This document shows, one piece after another, positions 6,972-59,466 of a stretch of 59,466 nucleotides of DNA (positions are counted from its first letter, which is position 1; each line of letters begins with the position of its first letter). The DNA is from Spirochaetota bacterium. GTDB taxonomy: Bacteria; Spirochaetota; UBA4802; UBA5368. Location: positions 1 through 59,466 of the forward strand of contig JALOTJ010000015.1 in assembly GCA_025457965.1 (NCBI GenBank), written 5' to 3'. Position numbers and translations under genes: made by a program. The notes under the pieces were generated by a model. The model made no database searches. It was not told where the DNA came from and saw nothing but the letters and a program-made list of their open reading frames with translations.

Positions 6972-7568
6972 GTGAACCTCCCCGGCACACTGGAAGCGCT
7001 TATCCGCGAGCTGTCGCGGCTTCCCGGCATAGGTCCCAAGAGCGCCTCGAGACTCGCGTTTCACCTCATCAAGGCGGCCCCCGAGGACGCGGCCGCCCTG
7101 GCGCGGGCCATCGTCGAATGCAAGAGCGCCATCACCGCATGCACGGCATGCGGCGCCATTGCGGAGGGCGGGCTCTGCCCGGTCTGCTCGGACGCGACGC
7201 GCGATCAAACGGTACTCTGCGTGGTCGAAAATCCTCGAGATGTGCTAACCATTGAACGAACGGGCGAGTTCCGGGGCCTGTATCACGTGCTGGGAGGTGT
7301 CATCTCCCCGCTTGACGGGATCGGACCGGACGAGCTTTCGGTCCGTGGCCTCGTCGACCGCTGCACGGGAGGCGTGGTACGCGAGCTCATTATTGCCACC
7401 AATCCCACGGTCGAGGGCGATGCCACCGGCCTTTATCTCGCGCGGCTCCTCAAACCGCTGGGCATCCGGGTTATGAGGATTGCGCACGGGCTGCCGGTGG
7501 GGGCCGACCTGGAATATGCCGATTCGATGACCATTGCCAGGTCGATTGCGGGGCGCGTGGAGATGTAG
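6972..7568 (+). CDS. recR: recombination protein RecR
   Basis: GTG start. LPGIGPKSASRLAFHL (HhH), a C4 zinc finger (CTACGAIAEGGLCPVC), and a Toprim segment. Confidence 0.93.
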   Translation: MNLPGTLEALIRELSRLPGIGPKSASRLAFHLIKAAPEDAAALARAIVECKSAITACTACGAIAEGGLCPVCSDATRDQTVLCVVENPRDVLTIERTGEFRGLYHVLGGVISPLDGIGPDELSVRGLVDRCTGGVVRELIIATNPTVEGDATGLYLARLLKPLGIRVMRIAHGLPVGADLEYADSMTIARSIAGRVEM

Positions 7569-7581
7569 GGGCGGCCCGCGG

Positions 7582-8895
7582 TCAGCGTTTTTTCCCTTCA
7601 ATAGAGATATCGATGGGTATCCCCGTAATGTCCAGTTTCCGCTGGAGCGCCTTCTCGATATGACGGAGGAGATCTTTGCGGAAGAGTTCCGGATTATTCA
7701 CGAAGAGCTTGAACCGGGGAGGTTTCACCCCCGTCTGCGTCAGATAATAGATCTTAAGCCTGCCTCCCAGCGTCGGAATATGGTGCGATCGCTGGATTTC
7801 TTCCATCACCCTGTTTAGCCTGGGTGTTTCAACCCGCTTCAAGGCTCGCTCGCTCAGTTCGATCGCCGTGGTCACCAGGCGGTGAATACGCTGTTTATCC
7901 CGTGCCGAAATGGAAATAATCGGAAAATCACCGGCCCGGTAGAACGTAAAGATGAGTCGCTCCTTATAGACGTCGAAGGTTTTATGGTCTTTATCGATCG
8001 CGTCCCACTTGTTTACCGCGATTATGGTGGGCTTGAATGCCGCGATTATCTCATCCGCTATCTTCTTATCGGTGTCGGTGAGTCCCTCCACCGCGTCGAT
8101 GAGGTGGATTACGACGTCGCACCGCCGGATTGACTCGACGGCGCGCCTGAGGGAGTAGAAGTCGACATTTTCGGTGATGCGGCTTTTTTTTCGGATACCG
8201 GCCGTGTCAATCAGAGTGATCGTGCGGCCGTGAAAGACGAAATCCTCATCGACGGCGTCGCGTGTAGTGCCCGGGATATCCGATACAATCGAACGTTCAT
8301 AGCCGATGAAAGCGTTCAGGAGCGTGGATTTGCCCGCGTTCGGTCGTCCGACTATGGCGATTTTGAGCTTTTCCCCCTCCGAATGGAGACGCTTGACGGG
8401 CAGCCGGTCGATGATTTTGTCCAGCAGAAGGCCAATATTGACCCTGTTCAGGGCGGAAATCGGCAGGAAATCATCGAATCCCATCTCGTAAAAGTGCGGG
8501 AGGTTCTGAAAATCGGAAGGGCCATCCATCTTGTTGACGGCGATGATGACCGGGATGCCGAGTTTGCGGACGATTTCGGCCAGTTCCATGTCGAATGAGG
8601 CCGGGGCCGGGTTCTCGAGGAGGAGGATGATCACCGTGGAGCGCGAAAGGAAATTTTTCGCGTTCTCGAGTATCGTCCGGGAGAGCAGGGACGAATTATC
8701 TATGTCCAGTCCCGGCGTATCGGACAGCATGAACGAGGCGTCGGCATGCGTGACCCGGTACGACAGAATATCGCGGGTAAGGCCCGGCATCGAGTCGACA
8801 ATCGCCTTCTTCTGCTTTATCAGCGCGTTAAAGAGGGTCGATTTGCCGACATTCTGCCTGCCGATGATCGTAACTATTGGAAGTTGTTTTGCCAT
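7582..8895 (-). CDS. der: ribosome-biogenesis GTPase Der (EngA), two G domains plus a KH-like domain
   Basis: GRQNVGKSTLFN and GRPNAGKSTLLN P-loops, DTPG and DTAG, NKMD and NKWD. Confidence 0.93.
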   Translation of the reverse strand: MAKQLPIVTIIGRQNVGKSTLFNALIKQKKAIVDSMPGLTRDILSYRVTHADASFMLSDTPGLDIDNSSLLSRTILENAKNFLSRSTVIILLLENPAPASFDMELAEIVRKLGIPVIIAVNKMDGPSDFQNLPHFYEMGFDDFLPISALNRVNIGLLLDKIIDRLPVKRLHSEGEKLKIAIVGRPNAGKSTLLNAFIGYERSIVSDIPGTTRDAVDEDFVFHGRTITLIDTAGIRKKSRITENVDFYSLRRAVESIRRCDVVIHLIDAVEGLTDTDKKIADEIIAAFKPTIIAVNKWDAIDKDHKTFDVYKERLIFTFYRAGDFPIISISARDKQRIHRLVTTAIELSERALKRVETPRLNRVMEEIQRSHHIPTLGGRLKIYYLTQTGVKPPRFKLFVNNPELFRKDLLRHIEKALQRKLDITGIPIDISIEGKKR

Positions 8896-10979: not shown

Positions 10980-11711
10980 TTATTCCTTCCGCAACCCGTT
11001 TCTTTTCTCTTCCATGATTACTTCGGCATCCGACTTGCGCGCGTAAAATGGAACGACCGCTGTGAAGTCAGCGTATCGTTCCGGGTTCGTTGCGTATATA
11101 TCCCCGACAATTCGGCAGGCGACGCTTCCCGAGGGGGCGAAACCCGCAAGCACCGTGCATTCGGGAATGTGTGCTTCAATCTCAGAGCGGTATTTTTCGG
11201 CCCCGTCGCCGACGGCGAAAGCGCGTTTACCGCGAGCGGGGGGTGCCAGTCGGGCGATCTCGTAATCACCCGGGGCCATCACCTCGACCGGGGAAAATGG
11301 ATCGTCCGAGAAGCGGTAGAGTGCGCCGAACACGCGGCCCTTCTTCGCGTCGAAGGCGACGAGTACGTATTCGCCGGGCGCCGCCGCGACCGAAGCCGCG
11401 TAGAGGAGCTGTGATTTCACGGGGACAAGGGGCGTGCCCAGCGCCTGGGCCAGCATGCGCGCGGTGCTTACGGCGATCCGGATGCCGGTGAAGGAACCGG
11501 GACCCACGCCAACGCCGATCAGTTCGATGTCGCGTATGCCGATGCCGAGCTCGCCGAGCGCCGCGTCGAGGTTCGCGAACAGCGTTACCGAATGGGAAAC
11601 GCGCGACGCCGCCGTACGGTCCGAGGTCCTCCCTCCCGAGGAGGCGGCGAGAAGCTCGGTGGAGGTGGCGGTTTCAATCACCAGGATATTCAATGCTGAT
11701 TTTCCTTTCAT
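10980..11711 (-). CDS. tsaB: tRNA t6A37 biosynthesis protein TsaB
   Basis: ILVIETATS..., GVGPGSFTGIRIAVSTARMLA. It lies next to tsaE. Confidence 0.85.
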   Translation of the reverse strand: MKGKSALNILVIETATSTELLAASSGGRTSDRTAASRVSHSVTLFANLDAALGELGIGIRDIELIGVGVGPGSFTGIRIAVSTARMLAQALGTPLVPVKSQLLYAASVAAAPGEYVLVAFDAKKGRVFGALYRFSDDPFSPVEVMAPGDYEIARLAPPARGKRAFAVGDGAEKYRSEIEAHIPECTVLAGFAPSGSVACRIVGDIYATNPERYADFTAVVPFYARKSDAEVIMEEKRNGLRKE

Positions 11712-12102
11712 TATCGCCGAGGTATTCCATGAATATGACGATGGTCGAATCCGGGAGCAGCCCCTCGGCGCGCTCGGCCCATTCGACTACGGAAACACCG
11801 TCGCCCTCCCAGTATTCCTCGAAACCGAGCGTATCGAACTCGGCGGTTTTTTCTATGCGGTACAGGTCGAAATGGTACAGCGGCGTACCGCCGTCGTAAA
11901 TTTCGAGCAGGGTAAACGTGGGGCTGGTAATGTCATCGGTTATGCCCAGCCCCCTCGCGATCCCGCGGGCCAGTACGGTCTTCCCGCTTCCGAGGTCGCC
12001 GTGCAGCGCGAAGACGGTTCCACGGCGCGCGCTTTGTCCGAGCTCTTTGCCGAGGCAAAGACTCTCCTCCTCTGAGCGGCTTATCAGGGTCCTGCGTCGC
12101 AT
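11674..12102 (-). CDS. tsaE: tRNA t6A37 biosynthesis ATPase TsaE
   Basis: LHGDLGSGKTVLARGIARGLG, SPTFTLLEIY, HFDLYR. Start set to the ATG at 12102; the listed ORF extends to a TTG at 12138. Confidence 0.8.
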   Translation of the reverse strand: MRRRTLISRSEEESLCLGKELGQSARRGTVFALHGDLGSGKTVLARGIARGLGITDDITSPTFTLLEIYDGGTPLYHFDLYRIEKTAEFDTLGFEEYWEGDGVSVVEWAERAEGLLPDSTIVIFMEYLGDNERKISIEYPGD

Positions 12103-12109
12103 GCTTAAC

Positions 12110-13141
12110 TCAAGACGCGGGGGCCGTCTCTTTTTCAAGTCTTTTTATAAAAGCGACGATATGCGCGGGCGGGTCGATTCCAAAGCGCATGGGCTTCCCG
12201 GATACGGGGTGGGCGAACTCGAGGTATACTGAAGCGAGCAACAGATGGGGTACGCGGTATTTTTCCCACTTTTTCGAGTAGATCGGGTCGCCGATGACCG
12301 GGAGCCCCGTCGAGGACAGGTGCACCCGGATCTGGTGCGTACGTCCGGTGTGGATGAGAATGTCGAAGACCGAAAAGACGCCGGAATGAGCGTGATAGAC
12401 CTTTTTTAAAAACAGTTCGGTGACGGCCGCCCTGCCGTCTTCGCGGATGCTCATCTTGTGTCGGTATTTGGGGTGCCTGCCTATCGGCGAATCGATGATC
12501 ATGTGTTCGGCCTGGGGTTTTCCCGCGCTGACGGTGAGGTAGCGCTTTACGACATTCCTGCCGGCGAACGCCTCGGATAAAAACCGGTGGGCCTGGTCGG
12601 TCTTGGCTATCACCATCACTCCCGCCGTGTCCTTGTCCAGACGGTGCACGATTCCCGGCCGCTCCACGCCGCCGATCGACGAAAGGTCGCGAAGATGATG
12701 GAGCAGGGCGTTGACCAGGGTCCCGTCGCGGTTGCCCGGGCCGGGATGAACGACCAGCCCGGCGGGCTTGTTGATGACGGCGAGATGGCCGTCTTCGTAC
12801 AGAATGTCGAGCGGAATGTCCTGTGGCTCGAGGTCCAGTTTTTCGGGCTCGGGAAAGGTGATCGATACGGCGTCATCGGTTTTAAGCCGGTAGTTGGGCC
12901 TGACATGCTCGCCGTTGACGGTGATGTGGCCGTGCCGGAGGAGGTTCTGTATAAGGCTGCGCGAAAGCTCCATCTCGAGGGACTGTGAGAGGAAGCGGTC
13001 GATCCGCTCGAGCTCGCCTTCGCCGGGTATGATGATTTCGATGGGTTCGCCGCGCATTGGGTTACCGGACCGGTATAGTACGCCGCGCTCTGTTCGCAAC
13101 GCGACGAAATTGATTATATATTGACTTTCGTATTCGTCCAT
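12110..13141 (-). CDS. rluD: 23S rRNA pseudouridine synthase, RluA family (RluD-like) with an S4 domain
   Basis: RIDRFL... (S4), VINKPAGLVVHP, HRLDKDTAGVMV, HQIRVH. An internal ATG at 13057 is an alternative start. Confidence 0.85.
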   Translation of the reverse strand: MDEYESQYIINFVALRTERGVLYRSGNPMRGEPIEIIIPGEGELERIDRFLSQSLEMELSRSLIQNLLRHGHITVNGEHVRPNYRLKTDDAVSITFPEPEKLDLEPQDIPLDILYEDGHLAVINKPAGLVVHPGPGNRDGTLVNALLHHLRDLSSIGGVERPGIVHRLDKDTAGVMVIAKTDQAHRFLSEAFAGRNVVKRYLTVSAGKPQAEHMIIDSPIGRHPKYRHKMSIREDGRAAVTELFLKKVYHAHSGVFSVFDILIHTGRTHQIRVHLSSTGLPVIGDPIYSKKWEKYRVPHLLLASVYLEFAHPVSGKPMRFGIDPPAHIVAFIKRLEKETAPAS

Positions 13142-56871: not shown

Positions 56872-57105
56872 TCAGTAATCGTACAGATTGACCGACGGCC
56901 TTCCGGTAATGACCTGCGCGGCGTCGCGCGCGAGCCGGTTTTCGATTTTCTTGATGCGGTCCACGGTCTCCTCGGTGAAGAGCACGCGGCCGCAGCGCGT
57001 ACACTGAAAGGCGGGGATGTCCTCCAGCATCAGATAGAAATTATCGCGGCTTACGCTGTAACAGCTTTTTCCCTCGATCAGCGCCCCGCCGCAGCTGCAT
57101 TCCAT
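56872..57105 (-). CDS. YgiT/MqsA-N-type zinc-finger protein (77 aa)
   Basis: MECSCGG...FQCTRCGRVLFTEET. This C4 ribbon matches the YgiT-type finger. No toxin-like partner ORF is adjacent. Confidence 0.6.
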   Translation of the reverse strand: MECSCGGALIEGKSCYSVSRDNFYLMLEDIPAFQCTRCGRVLFTEETVDRIKKIENRLARDAAQVITGRPSVNLYDY

Positions 57106-57248: not shown

Positions 57249-57718
57249 GGGGTCAGAGCATCCGGCAACGAGCATCGTGAATGCGGGGTCAGAGCATTGA
57301 TTGAGGATGGCTGGGATGATGGGGGTCAGAGCATTGATTGAGGATGGCTGGGATGATGGGGGTCAGAGCATGGTTTGAGCCCGGATTGAGAATAAGGGGT
57401 CAGAGCATCCGGCAGCGGGTTGGCGCACCCCGTACGGTGCGGGATGGGGCCGGCTGGATGATAGGGGGTCAGAGCACTTTTCGGGGACGGCAGGGGGAAA
57501 CAGGGGTCAGAGCATGCAATTTTACCGGGAATGGCAGGGGTCAGAGCCCCTTGCGGATGGCTGGGATGATGGGGTCAGAGCCTTCGGCGGGTTCCCGGCT
57601 GGAAAGCGATAGGGGGTCAGAGAACGGGTTGAGAACGGGTTCGGCTTGCGTCGATTGCGATACGGGAATGCGGGCGCAGGGCATTTCTGCGGATTACTTT
57701 GTGCAAGGGGTCAGAGCC
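57249..57718 (+). repeat. degenerate tandem array with 11 intact copies of the core GGGGTCAGAG(C/A)(A/C) at 34-42-nt spacing (two longer gaps); not CRISPR
   Basis: Core starts: 57249, 57285, 57322, 57359, 57396, 57465, 57503, 57537, 57571, 57613, 57707. A 9/12 degenerate copy lies at 57672. Units 57285-57321 and 57322-57358 are identical. The + strand is strongly G over C. Confidence 0.85.
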
Positions 57719-57881
57719 CTCAATTTAAGCCGTGCGTTTGAAGATGCAAAAAAATCGCACCCTCACGATAGTATAGGTACTACTTGCCTATTTCATCAAC
57801 AGATCGGGCGGTGCGTTCAGTTCTGGCGCTATAGCGGCAATTTTAACATTATTTTTACCTCGTCTTGATAGGAATTTAACA

Positions 57882-57909
57882 TTGACATGAGAGCTTTGCC
57901 TCGTAGACT
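57882..57909 (+). promoter_or_regulatory. sigma70-like promoter candidate for the porin gene
   Basis: TTGACA (57882-57887), 16 nt spacer, TAGACT (57904-57909). This would give a 5' leader of about 240 nt. Confidence 0.4.
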
Positions 57910-58156
57910 CGCCTGCGTCTTGTGAGTTTACCGGACGGCGACCTGCATGTCCACGCGGCCCCGCCTCTCTCCCGTGATGAAACGGGAGGACCGCGGGACC
58001 CGGAGCGGTATGCGGCGCTCCGGCCGAATAATGGAGGTATCGCGAAACCCGGTAATGCCGGACCTTTCCCGCCCGCTGCGGGAAAGCGATGCGCATTCCC
58101 CGGCCGAGCGATACTTCCATAGCATACAATTAAAATCGTTTCAGGAGGAATTACAG

Positions 58157-59338
58157 ATGAAGTCACGTAAATTTTTTGCGCTTCTGGTGGCGGCCGTGTT
58201 CGTATTCGCCGGCGCCGCGTTCGCGCAGGACGCGCCCAAGGCCGACGAGCCGAAGCCCGTTGTTGACGTGAGCGGCGTGCTGTATCTGGACTACGCGTAT
58301 TACATGAAGAGTGACTCTGGGCAGGAAAAGGCCGACAATATGCGGATCACGCGTGCGTATGTCAACTTCGCGAAGAAGATTGATGATGTGTGGAGTGCGA
58401 AGGTCACCATAGACGGTTCTGGAGTTGCTGAGAAGGACAAGGACAATAAAATTACCGCGAACAACCTTGTCTTTATTAAGAATGCTTATGTTGAGATGAA
58501 ACAGGCATTCGACCCGGTTGTCCTGAAAATTCAATATGGTATCGTGGGTACGCCAATCATCGGCATCGCCGACAGCATGGGGGGGGCACGATGGATTTAC
58601 AACACGTACCTGGATAAAAGCGGTGACCTGCTCGGAAAGACCGGTGATGCGGCTGTTGCCGCAGACTATAAGAGTCATGCGCTGGATGTTAGCTCCGCCG
58701 ACATGGGTATCAAAGGTGAGCTTAGCATCATGAAGATGGTTACGATAACCGGTATGTATTCCAACGGTACTGGGTTCAAGTATACTGAGGAAACACAAAC
58801 CGCCAGCACAGAGCCGAATCCCATAGTTGATAAGGCCTATTATGGCATGATCAGCATCACTCCGATTAAGGGCCTCTTTATAAACGGTTACTACCACACC
58901 AGGGATATCGTTAAAGCTACTGCAGACGATGATGAAGTTACCTATTATGGTGGCGGACTTGCTTGGAGCGACAAGTCCTTTAAGGTCGGTGCCAACTACG
59001 TGATGGGTGAGCGGGATTCAGTTGATGTTCGGCAAAAAGCCGATTATACCCTTTACGAAATTTGGGCAAACATCAACTTGGCAGAAGTGGTCGGAGTTCC
59101 GGTCATTCTGTATGGCAAGTATGCAGTGGGTAGCACAGAAAGTGATGTAAACATATTGGGTGAAGTGCAGGATGTGGATAGCACCGTATACTATGCCGGT
59201 CTTGGCTATCAGTTTAACAACGCTGTCCAAGCGATGGTTGTGTATCAGGCACAGGAGTCTGAAGGCAAACTAAATGGTGGTGGAAAGGGAACGGTCAAGG
59301 ACAACACCCTTTGGGTGAAGACGGAAGTCAAGTTCTAA
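58157..59338 (+). CDS. porin-like outer-membrane beta-barrel protein
   Basis: ATG 8 nt after AGGAGG. Signal peptide MKSRKFFALLVAAVFVFAGAAFA, beta-strand periodicity, and a C-terminal ...LWVKTEVKF. The listed longer ORF (from 57947) would place 70 aa ahead of the signal peptide. Confidence 0.75.
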   Translation: MKSRKFFALLVAAVFVFAGAAFAQDAPKADEPKPVVDVSGVLYLDYAYYMKSDSGQEKADNMRITRAYVNFAKKIDDVWSAKVTIDGSGVAEKDKDNKITANNLVFIKNAYVEMKQAFDPVVLKIQYGIVGTPIIGIADSMGGARWIYNTYLDKSGDLLGKTGDAAVAADYKSHALDVSSADMGIKGELSIMKMVTITGMYSNGTGFKYTEETQTASTEPNPIVDKAYYGMISITPIKGLFINGYYHTRDIVKATADDDEVTYYGGGLAWSDKSFKVGANYVMGERDSVDVRQKADYTLYEIWANINLAEVVGVPVILYGKYAVGSTESDVNILGEVQDVDSTVYYAGLGYQFNNAVQAMVVYQAQESEGKLNGGGKGTVKDNTLWVKTEVKF

Positions 59339-59364
59339 GCTTCCATTCCAGTTTGTGCGTACGG

Positions 59365-59396
59365 AAGAGCGCGGCGTTTGCCGCGCTCTTTTTTTT
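59365..59396 (+). terminator. rho-independent terminator after the porin gene
   Basis: AAGAGCGCGGC / GTTT / GCCGCGCTCTT followed by a T-run. Confidence 0.8.
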
Positions 59397-59440: not shown

Positions 59441-59451
59441 GCTCTGACCCC
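59441..59451 (-). repeat. isolated inverted copy of the GGGGTCAGAGC core
   Basis: The + strand reads GCTCTGACCCC, the exact reverse complement of the array core, 45 nt past the porin terminator and at the window edge. Confidence 0.6.
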
Positions 59452-59466
59452 TGGTGCGAACGCGGC

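Follow-up and report, generated by a model that had tools for sequence, protein, structure and literature searches.

What is the G-rich array of short, near-identical motifs that separates gltX from a porin gene in the genome of a Spirochaetota bacterium? The window analysed here is a stretch of 59,466 nucleotides that makes up one entire contig. A first-pass annotation, made from the sequence alone, had offered three hypotheses for the array: a protein-sponge small RNA, an iteron or operator array upstream of the porin gene, or a cluster of a genome-specific REP-like element. We re-examined the array in the window, compared it with related contigs and searched for its core motif in other phyla.

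The array in the window and in its syntenic relatives

The locus comprises the following features.

57249..57718, + strand: direct array of 11 copies of the core GGGGTCAGAG(C/A)(A/C), in units of 34-94 nt
57285-57321 and 57322-57358, + strand: two identical 37-nt units, which together with the next unit form a 2.6-copy TRF array
57672..57683, + strand: decayed core GGGCGCAGGGCA (9/12) within the 94-nt unit; the homologous site in the related contig L129 reads GGGTTCAGGGCA
57882..57909, + strand: predicted sigma-70-like porin promoter (TTGACA, 16-nt spacer, TAGACT), in a stretch 95% identical to L129
58157..59338, + strand: gene for a porin-like outer-membrane protein of 393 aa, flanked by the direct array and the inverted core
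59363..59392, + strand: intrinsic porin terminator, between the porin gene and the inverted core
59441..59451, − strand: twelfth core, inverted, 103 nt past the porin stop and 15 nt before the contig end

The direct cores start at positions 57249, 57285, 57322, 57359, 57396, 57465, 57503, 57537, 57571, 57613 and 57707. The eleven copies and their spacings (36, 37, 37, 37, 69, 38, 34, 34, 42 and 94 nt) were thus recovered exactly as first annotated, as was the 9/12 decayed core at 57672 inside the 94-nt gap. Seven of the 11 cores are exact 12-mers, while the other four depart from the 12-mer at a single position, either 11 or 12; the variable segments between them are related to each other. Matches to the core with at most two mismatches number 14 in the window versus 4.0 ± 2.0 in dinucleotide-preserving shuffles of it, and none of the 100 shuffles reached 14. 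The identity of the 37-nt pair at 57285..57358 is taken as indicating a recent tandem duplication. The inverted twelfth core, which sits directly beyond the porin terminator, was absent from the first-pass annotation. Apart from the array and the porin locus, no core occurs in the 59-kb contig, and none was found in about 105 kb of sequence of the window's clade away from the locus (about 48 kb of it from relatives). To judge from this sample, the core family in this clade looks local rather than dispersed in high copy.

The previously reported excess of G over C on the + strand of the array is real (198 G versus 87 C, with a GC skew of up to +0.5), and the strand that has positive GC skew over the whole window carries all 11 array cores. 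The GGA triplets, put at about 18, amount on recounting to 15, no excess over composition (16.8 ± 3.1 in mononucleotide shuffles). An Rfam search of the array, proposed at first pass, gave no real match: nothing at the gathering score, and chance-level matches only at E≤5. Folding against shuffled sequence detected no excess structure in the array as RNA (z = +0.65) and no excess hairpins as DNA (z = −0.89). Most units are devoid of self-complementarity, and neither GTAG nor GTGG is present in the core on either strand. No sigma-70-like promoter was found on the + strand 5′ of the array; the only one on that strand there is the predicted porin promoter, 3′ of the array. The sole terminator-like site within the array is weak.

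Two readings already set aside at first pass can be left there. In CRISPR arrays, too, variable spacers separate the copies of a conserved repeat, with a period of about 36 nt, but their repeats measure about 23-55 nt, their spacers are unique and cas genes accompany them, whereas the conserved unit of the window is 11-12 nt long, its spacers are interrelated and cas genes are lacking. No CRISPR repeat in Rfam matched the array at the gathering score. Nor is the array coding. The open reading frame 57338..57868 is an artefact because the array turns over by whole units, and the indels of 74, 33 and 41 nt that distinguish it from a relative with 97% identical flanks would break the frame.

This turnover is apparent from related contigs that share the order MurJ, a transglutaminase-like gene, two small genes, gltX, a gene for a 77-aa zinc-ribbon protein, the intergenic region and the porin gene, namely L125 (identical to L126 over the shared region), L127, L129 and L132/L133. 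Across the 9.5 kb that end halfway through the array, the window and L129 are 96.9% identical. Three indels distinguish the two arrays. Their lengths are 74 nt (exactly two units of 37 nt), 33 nt and 41 nt, and one or two cores lie in each; units 3 and 4 (57322-57395, 74 nt) are missing from L129. L125 and L127 match the window at 82-88% identity in the flanks; their array region is unalignable with that of the window, and alignment resumes at about 57813-57840, just 5′ of the porin promoter. The alignment of the gltX-porin intergenic region, another check proposed at first pass, therefore finds the array conserved in its orthologous place and the sequence between the cores unconserved. Because of the unit indels in L129 and the unalignable arrays of L125 and L127, the array turns over fast by whole units, its cores staying exact.

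The zinc-ribbon-like protein encoded between gltX and the array (56872-57105, − strand) contains four cysteines and is 87-100% conserved in all syntenic relatives; its homologues have no Pfam family on record. In L129, which is derived from long reads, gltX is split into two open reading frames (7334-8777), and the Y1 transposase gene at 11999-12466 encodes 155 aa with a weak Pfam match and appears truncated or frameshifted. The split gltX and the short Y1 gene could be either real pseudogenes or assembly indel errors.

The number of direct cores 5′ of the porin gene varies among these relatives (two in L125, three in L127, seven in L129 and three in L132/L133), and in each of them, as in the window, an inverted core lies about 100 nt past the porin stop (at 11280 in L125, 11303 in L127 and 11265 in L129). 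In all five relatives the porin is followed by a Y1_Tnp gene, which is encoded on the other strand. More cores surround it, so that cores flank a Y1 transposase gene in every syntenic relative (L125, L127, L129 and L130-L133). The proteins of L125 and L127 score 82.4 and 84.4 bits, respectively, against a cut-off of 80 for the NCBIfam model NF047646 (REP-associated tyrosine transposase).

No Y1 transposase gene was detected in the window itself by tblastn. In L129, positions 11265-11314 form a perfect palindrome made of a core, a 28-nt self-complementary spacer and a second core, an arrangement that resembles a REPIN. The inverted core of the window at 59441..59451 is probably the first arm of a similar palindromic core pair. 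Most likely, this repeat or palindrome is where the assembly broke off, and a Y1 gene lies just past position 59466, to judge from the syntenic relatives, which carry Y1 there.

The GC content of the porin gene is 0.495 versus 0.573 for the contig; its closest homologues are in Spirochaetota metagenome-assembled genomes, and some homologues carry PF13609 or PF07396. Between the window (58300-59300) and L129 (10140-11140), the mature porin is 59-80% identical with several indels, while promoter, 5′UTR and signal peptide are 91-95% identical and the 9.5-kb flank about 97%. The divergence of the mature part suggests either that the allele was replaced or that this surface protein has diversified strongly. 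A swapped porin cassette bounded by cores, considered in view of a drop in BLAST identity from 97% to 74%, was rejected, since a 100-nt sliding comparison puts the divergence within the coding sequence at 58300-59300. The leader between predicted promoter and ATG (57915-58156, about 245 nt) is GC-rich, up to 65%, and for the most part 91-94% identical to L129, falling to 85% in the last 100-nt window that includes the ATG. It has no Rfam match even at E≤5 and could hold a regulatory structure. No porin of this family was found adjoining cores outside the syntenic clade. On the sequence comparisons made here, the porin is a neighbour of the repeat family and no part of it.

The core across phyla and its association with Y1 transposase genes

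When one genome per species was scanned for core pairs with a distance of 18-34 nt, at least 120 loci in at least nine phyla were retrieved, where about 1-10 would be expected by chance as calculated from base composition. According to record titles, the loci listed include Pseudomonadota (Massilia, Telluria, Polaromonas, Casimicrobiaceae and Haliea), Gemmatimonadota, Spirochaetota, Actinomycetota, Planctomycetota, Acidobacteriota, Verrucomicrobiota, Myxococcota and Bacillota, among others. Some of the genomes listed contain several separate core loci, five in Massilia phosphatilytica and four in Spirochaetota USMO_maxbin.118. What is conserved between lineages is the 11-mer GGGGTCAGAGC only, flanks and spacers being lineage-specific. 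The proposal of a genome-specific REP-like cluster is hence right about the REP-like character and wrong about the genome specificity, since the same 11-mer recurs in at least nine phyla.

Arrays in the loci listed have periods of 12-42 nt, and a direct array very often faces an inverted one. Some layouts are very unlike the period of about 36 nt seen in the window. In Gemmatimonadaceae, near-pure tandem arrays repeat the core up to 10 times with a period of 12-13 nt, at the following places.

L027, 2935-3062: tandem core array
L054, 898-999: tandem core array
L072, 7352-7427: tandem core array
L008, L071 and L074: further tandem core arrays

In Biformimicrobium and a Thermoleophilaceae metagenome-assembled genome (L025, L079 and L033), + and − cores are interleaved 14-15 nt apart. 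Four contigs of the IMG/VR viral collection (L121-L124) bear core pairs 30-31 nt apart from start to start, with 19-20 nt between them.

Facing arrays that are separated by 0.8-1 kb enclose a gene whose product, 196-320 aa in length, contains a Y---NP tyrosine motif as well as an HUH motif that reads NHVH, NHIH or NHFH. This protein matches Pfam Y1_Tnp with E values of 1e-10 to 1e-15 and next best the NCBIfam model REP_Tyr_transpos, and its closest solved structure is 4ER8, the TnpA-REP of E. coli. Residues H60, H62 and Y125 are invariant in an alignment of nine proteins. Among the 124 core-selected 8-kb loci listed, none of which belongs to the genome of the window, 15 contain a Y1 gene and two more a fragment of one. 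We also examined the association from the side of the protein, in 80 metagenome loci picked by protein similarity alone (49-88% identity) with an alignment of four Spirochaetota proteins, a sample that covers that clade only. The exact 11-mer is found within 500 nt of the Y1 gene in 71 of these 80 loci, and core density is 2.37 per kb near the gene versus 0.32 per kb more than 1 kb away.

The Y1 gene is multi-copy in some metagenomes, with two copies on one contig. Copies within one metagenome are 82-92% identical (most 88-92%) over only about 700-750 nt. On the upstream side the shared block extends 15-29 nt past the core, and on the downstream side it stops near the core, so that the cores bracket it; the multi-copy block is an IS-like unit with subterminal cores.

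The proteins fall into different types. Those of Massilia, Haliea and Phycisphaerae (L091, L102, L104 and L114) have NHVH and YIELNP motifs, L091 has in addition a Bac_DnaA_C-like tail, and the cores around their genes face inward. The clade next to the porin in Spirochaetota is 196 aa long, with NHFH and YLAFNP motifs and without the tail, its subclass being uncertain; its cores are of mixed orientation. In most of the Spirochaetota-type sample (L134-L209), the cores face outward, at about −84 upstream and +18 downstream.

Our preferred reading, to which we assign a probability of roughly 0.78, is that the array is a cluster of the end or recognition repeat of a class-2 Y1 (HUH) single-stranded DNA transposase of the RAYT/TIRYT type, and the outer part of a REPtron- or TIRtron-like neighbourhood. 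It builds on the observed co-occurrence of core and Y1 gene, the orthologous placement of the array and the gain and loss of whole units. Counted against it are the opposite orientations, inward and outward, of the cores around different gene clades, and the fact that slippage or unequal recombination alone could yield gain and loss of units.

Relation to known repeat systems and a possible mechanism

RAYT-like genes that are flanked by terminal inverted repeats and lack GTAG-tagged REPs have been named TIRYT, and the corresponding units TIRtrons (Di Nocera et al. 2013, PMC3733652). Many of these repeats share GGGGWSAS, and some moderately abundant families occur as single copies, dimers and clusters (PMC3733652). 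Most TIRYTs belong to TnpA-Y1 subclass 2.1, characterized by NHVH or NH[YF]H, by YIELNP or Y[IV]HLNP and by a C-terminal DnaA_C-like helix-turn-helix, and no REP-like sequences were found near subclass 2.1 genes by Quentin et al. (2018, PMC6006769). TIRtrons also correspond to group 1 of Bertels. In our literature search the term TIRYT turned up in two relevant papers only, and no later work on TIRYTs was found. The statement in the first-pass annotation that the core was not a described element has to be withdrawn, as its first 8 nt match the GGGGWSAS of the repeats flanking TIRYT genes (PMC3733652; PMC6006769).

Shared with TIRtrons are, in the syntenic relatives of the window, a Y1/HUH RAYT-like enzyme flanked by inverted short repeats and, in the window itself, the lack of GTAG-tagged palindromes and a core, GGGGTCAG(AGC), that fits GGGG[AT][CG]A[CG] in all 11 copies and in the inverted one. 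Because these 8 nt fit GGGGWSAS and the proteobacterial proteins fit subclass 2.1, we regard the array as a TIRYT-type repeat cluster. It departs from TIRtrons in its longer motif, the exact 11-mer; in the presence of this core with a Spirochaetota clade of 196-aa proteins (NHFH/YLAFNP) that are about 26% identical; and in its tandem arrays, which run in one direction, comprise as many as 11 units in the window and elsewhere have periods down to 12-13 nt. A full-text literature search for the 11-mer and its reverse complement returned only unrelated eukaryotic and viral primer sequences. What seems new beyond PMC3733652 and PMC6006769 is that an exact 11-mer is common to many phyla, that it also accompanies a second clade of shorter proteins, whose identity to the first is about 26%, and that it makes one-directional tandem arrays of almost any period.

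The array can also be compared with REP/BIME clusters, with REPtrons such as that of E. coli yafM (PDB 4ER8) and with Pseudomonas REPINs. All have short extragenic repeats clustered around a usually low-copy Y1 gene, by which the repeats are presumably mobilised, and REP/BIME clusters, too, are intergenic and vary in copy number between strains. A canonical REP, however, is an imperfect palindrome that spans 20-40 nt and is tagged with GT[AG]G on its 5′ side; its sequence is specific to the lineage, and successive copies in a BIME have opposite orientations, whereas the core of the window has neither hairpin nor GTAG, is the same across phyla and points in one direction in all 11 copies. The array works like a REPtron neighbourhood; with both the hairpin and the GT[AG]G tag missing, it is not a REP in the strict sense. 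IS200/IS605 elements (TnpA-Y1 subclass 1.1) have in common with the present family the HUH/Y1 catalytic core and, in some metagenomes, a multi-copy unit of gene and cores of about 750 bp, but they are distinguished by subterminal hairpin ends, by a Y---Q motif in place of Y---NP and by the lack of tandem arrays of end motifs. On the whole, the array is largely explained as a REP-like, TIRtron-type cluster next to a locus for a Y1 tyrosine transposase; arrangements of this kind are known but have received little study.

The TnpA of IS200/IS605 and the TnpA-REP of E. coli are single-strand-specific HUH enzymes that act at replication forks. By analogy with these two enzymes, the Y1 enzyme would recognise the 11-mer by its G-rich strand in single-stranded form, for instance in the template of the lagging strand. 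Units would then be duplicated or deleted as the DNA is cut and rejoined between one core and the next, perhaps along with slippage or unequal recombination, and such gain and loss would build a tandem array with arbitrary spacers. If the skew reports replication direction here, the array cores would be on the lagging-strand template, which is compatible with the model and unproven. We infer that the Y1 enzyme binds or cleaves at the core. Its mode of recognition must differ from the solved examples because the units, unlike REPs and IS200/IS605 ends, form no hairpins. To our knowledge, no Y1 transposase of the TIRYT or subclass 2.1 type has been the subject of biochemical work. Within the divergent intergenic stretch that separates the zinc-ribbon/gltX operon from the porin gene, the array is most likely selfish or neutral DNA.

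Competing explanations and implications

An unlikely alternative is that the array is an inert minisatellite whose cores are fossils of old element ends and whose length now changes only through slippage during replication or through unequal homologous recombination, no enzyme being involved. Slippage between direct repeats of 11-12 nt would give just such indels of whole units and just such a perfect duplication of 37 nt, and the adjacent Y1 gene of L129 seems to be damaged. Across relatives and phyla, however, cores remain exact while the spacers diverge freely, a pattern that favours ongoing selection on the core or its renewal.

We consider it improbable that the porin is a passenger, with the array and the cores past Y1 acting as the two ends of a composite element and the porin gene as a mobile or recombining cassette. 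Such an arrangement would suit L125, where the only two cores in canonical inversion to those 5′ of Y1 are the ones upstream of the porin, and it would accommodate both the low GC content of the gene and the divergence of its mature part between genomes that are 97% identical elsewhere. The break points, however, are not at the cores, as the divergence lies at about 58300-59300 within the coding sequence and DNA on the array side is 91-95% identical. Flanking genes are the same in all relatives, with no sign that a two-gene unit has moved, and the restriction of core-adjacent porins of this family to the syntenic clade speaks against the passenger reading as well.

The second hypothesis of the first-pass annotation, taken here in the form that a DNA-binding protein, possibly Y1 itself, coats the cores and modulates the porin or the zinc-ribbon/gltX operon, finds some encouragement in the location of the array, which is kept in all relatives, within a 1-kb divergent intergenic region and 165 nt 5′ of the porin promoter. 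It nevertheless retains little probability. Syntenic relatives carry anywhere between 2 and 11 cores but share a conserved promoter region downstream, the spacing is irregular (34-94 nt), the same core makes arrays at unrelated loci in many phyla, and the local Y1 clade is without the extra helix-turn-helix tail. A CsrB/RsmZ-like sponge RNA presenting reiterated GGA or core motifs, suggested at first pass by the many GGA triplets and repeated motifs of the G-rich strand, is hardly credible, since such RNAs present enriched GGA motifs in hairpin loops and are discrete transcripts with their own promoter and terminator, whereas the array has no surplus of GGA or of RNA structure, no Rfam match, no + strand promoter-like site upstream and only a weak terminator-like site. 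In addition, its intercore sequence is not conserved in relatives, being unalignable where flanks are 82-88% identical, and in many phyla the core goes together with a DNA transposase.

One extension of the transposase reading is a long shot. It holds that GGGGTCAGAGC is a near-universal single-stranded recognition or cleavage site of at least two deeply diverged class-2 Y1/HUH clades, and that in this Spirochaetota lineage enzyme and arrays have long been kept around a hypervariable surface porin because the way they process DNA would promote replacement of porin alleles or switch porin expression. If this were true, the porin-linked Y1 gene and array would be a diversification system exploited by the host and not junk DNA.

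For annotation, the preferred reading, a repeat cluster of a Y1 transposase, means that an odd G-rich array and the break of the contig are both explained by a REP-like repeat family, and that such an array should not be called a small RNA, a CRISPR array or an open reading frame. For the study of mobile DNA, it means that enzymes of the subclass 2.1 type, which one survey reported to be without associated repeats, share an exact, non-palindromic 11-mer, and this 11-mer is a concrete candidate substrate for the first in vitro work on TIRYT-type enzymes.
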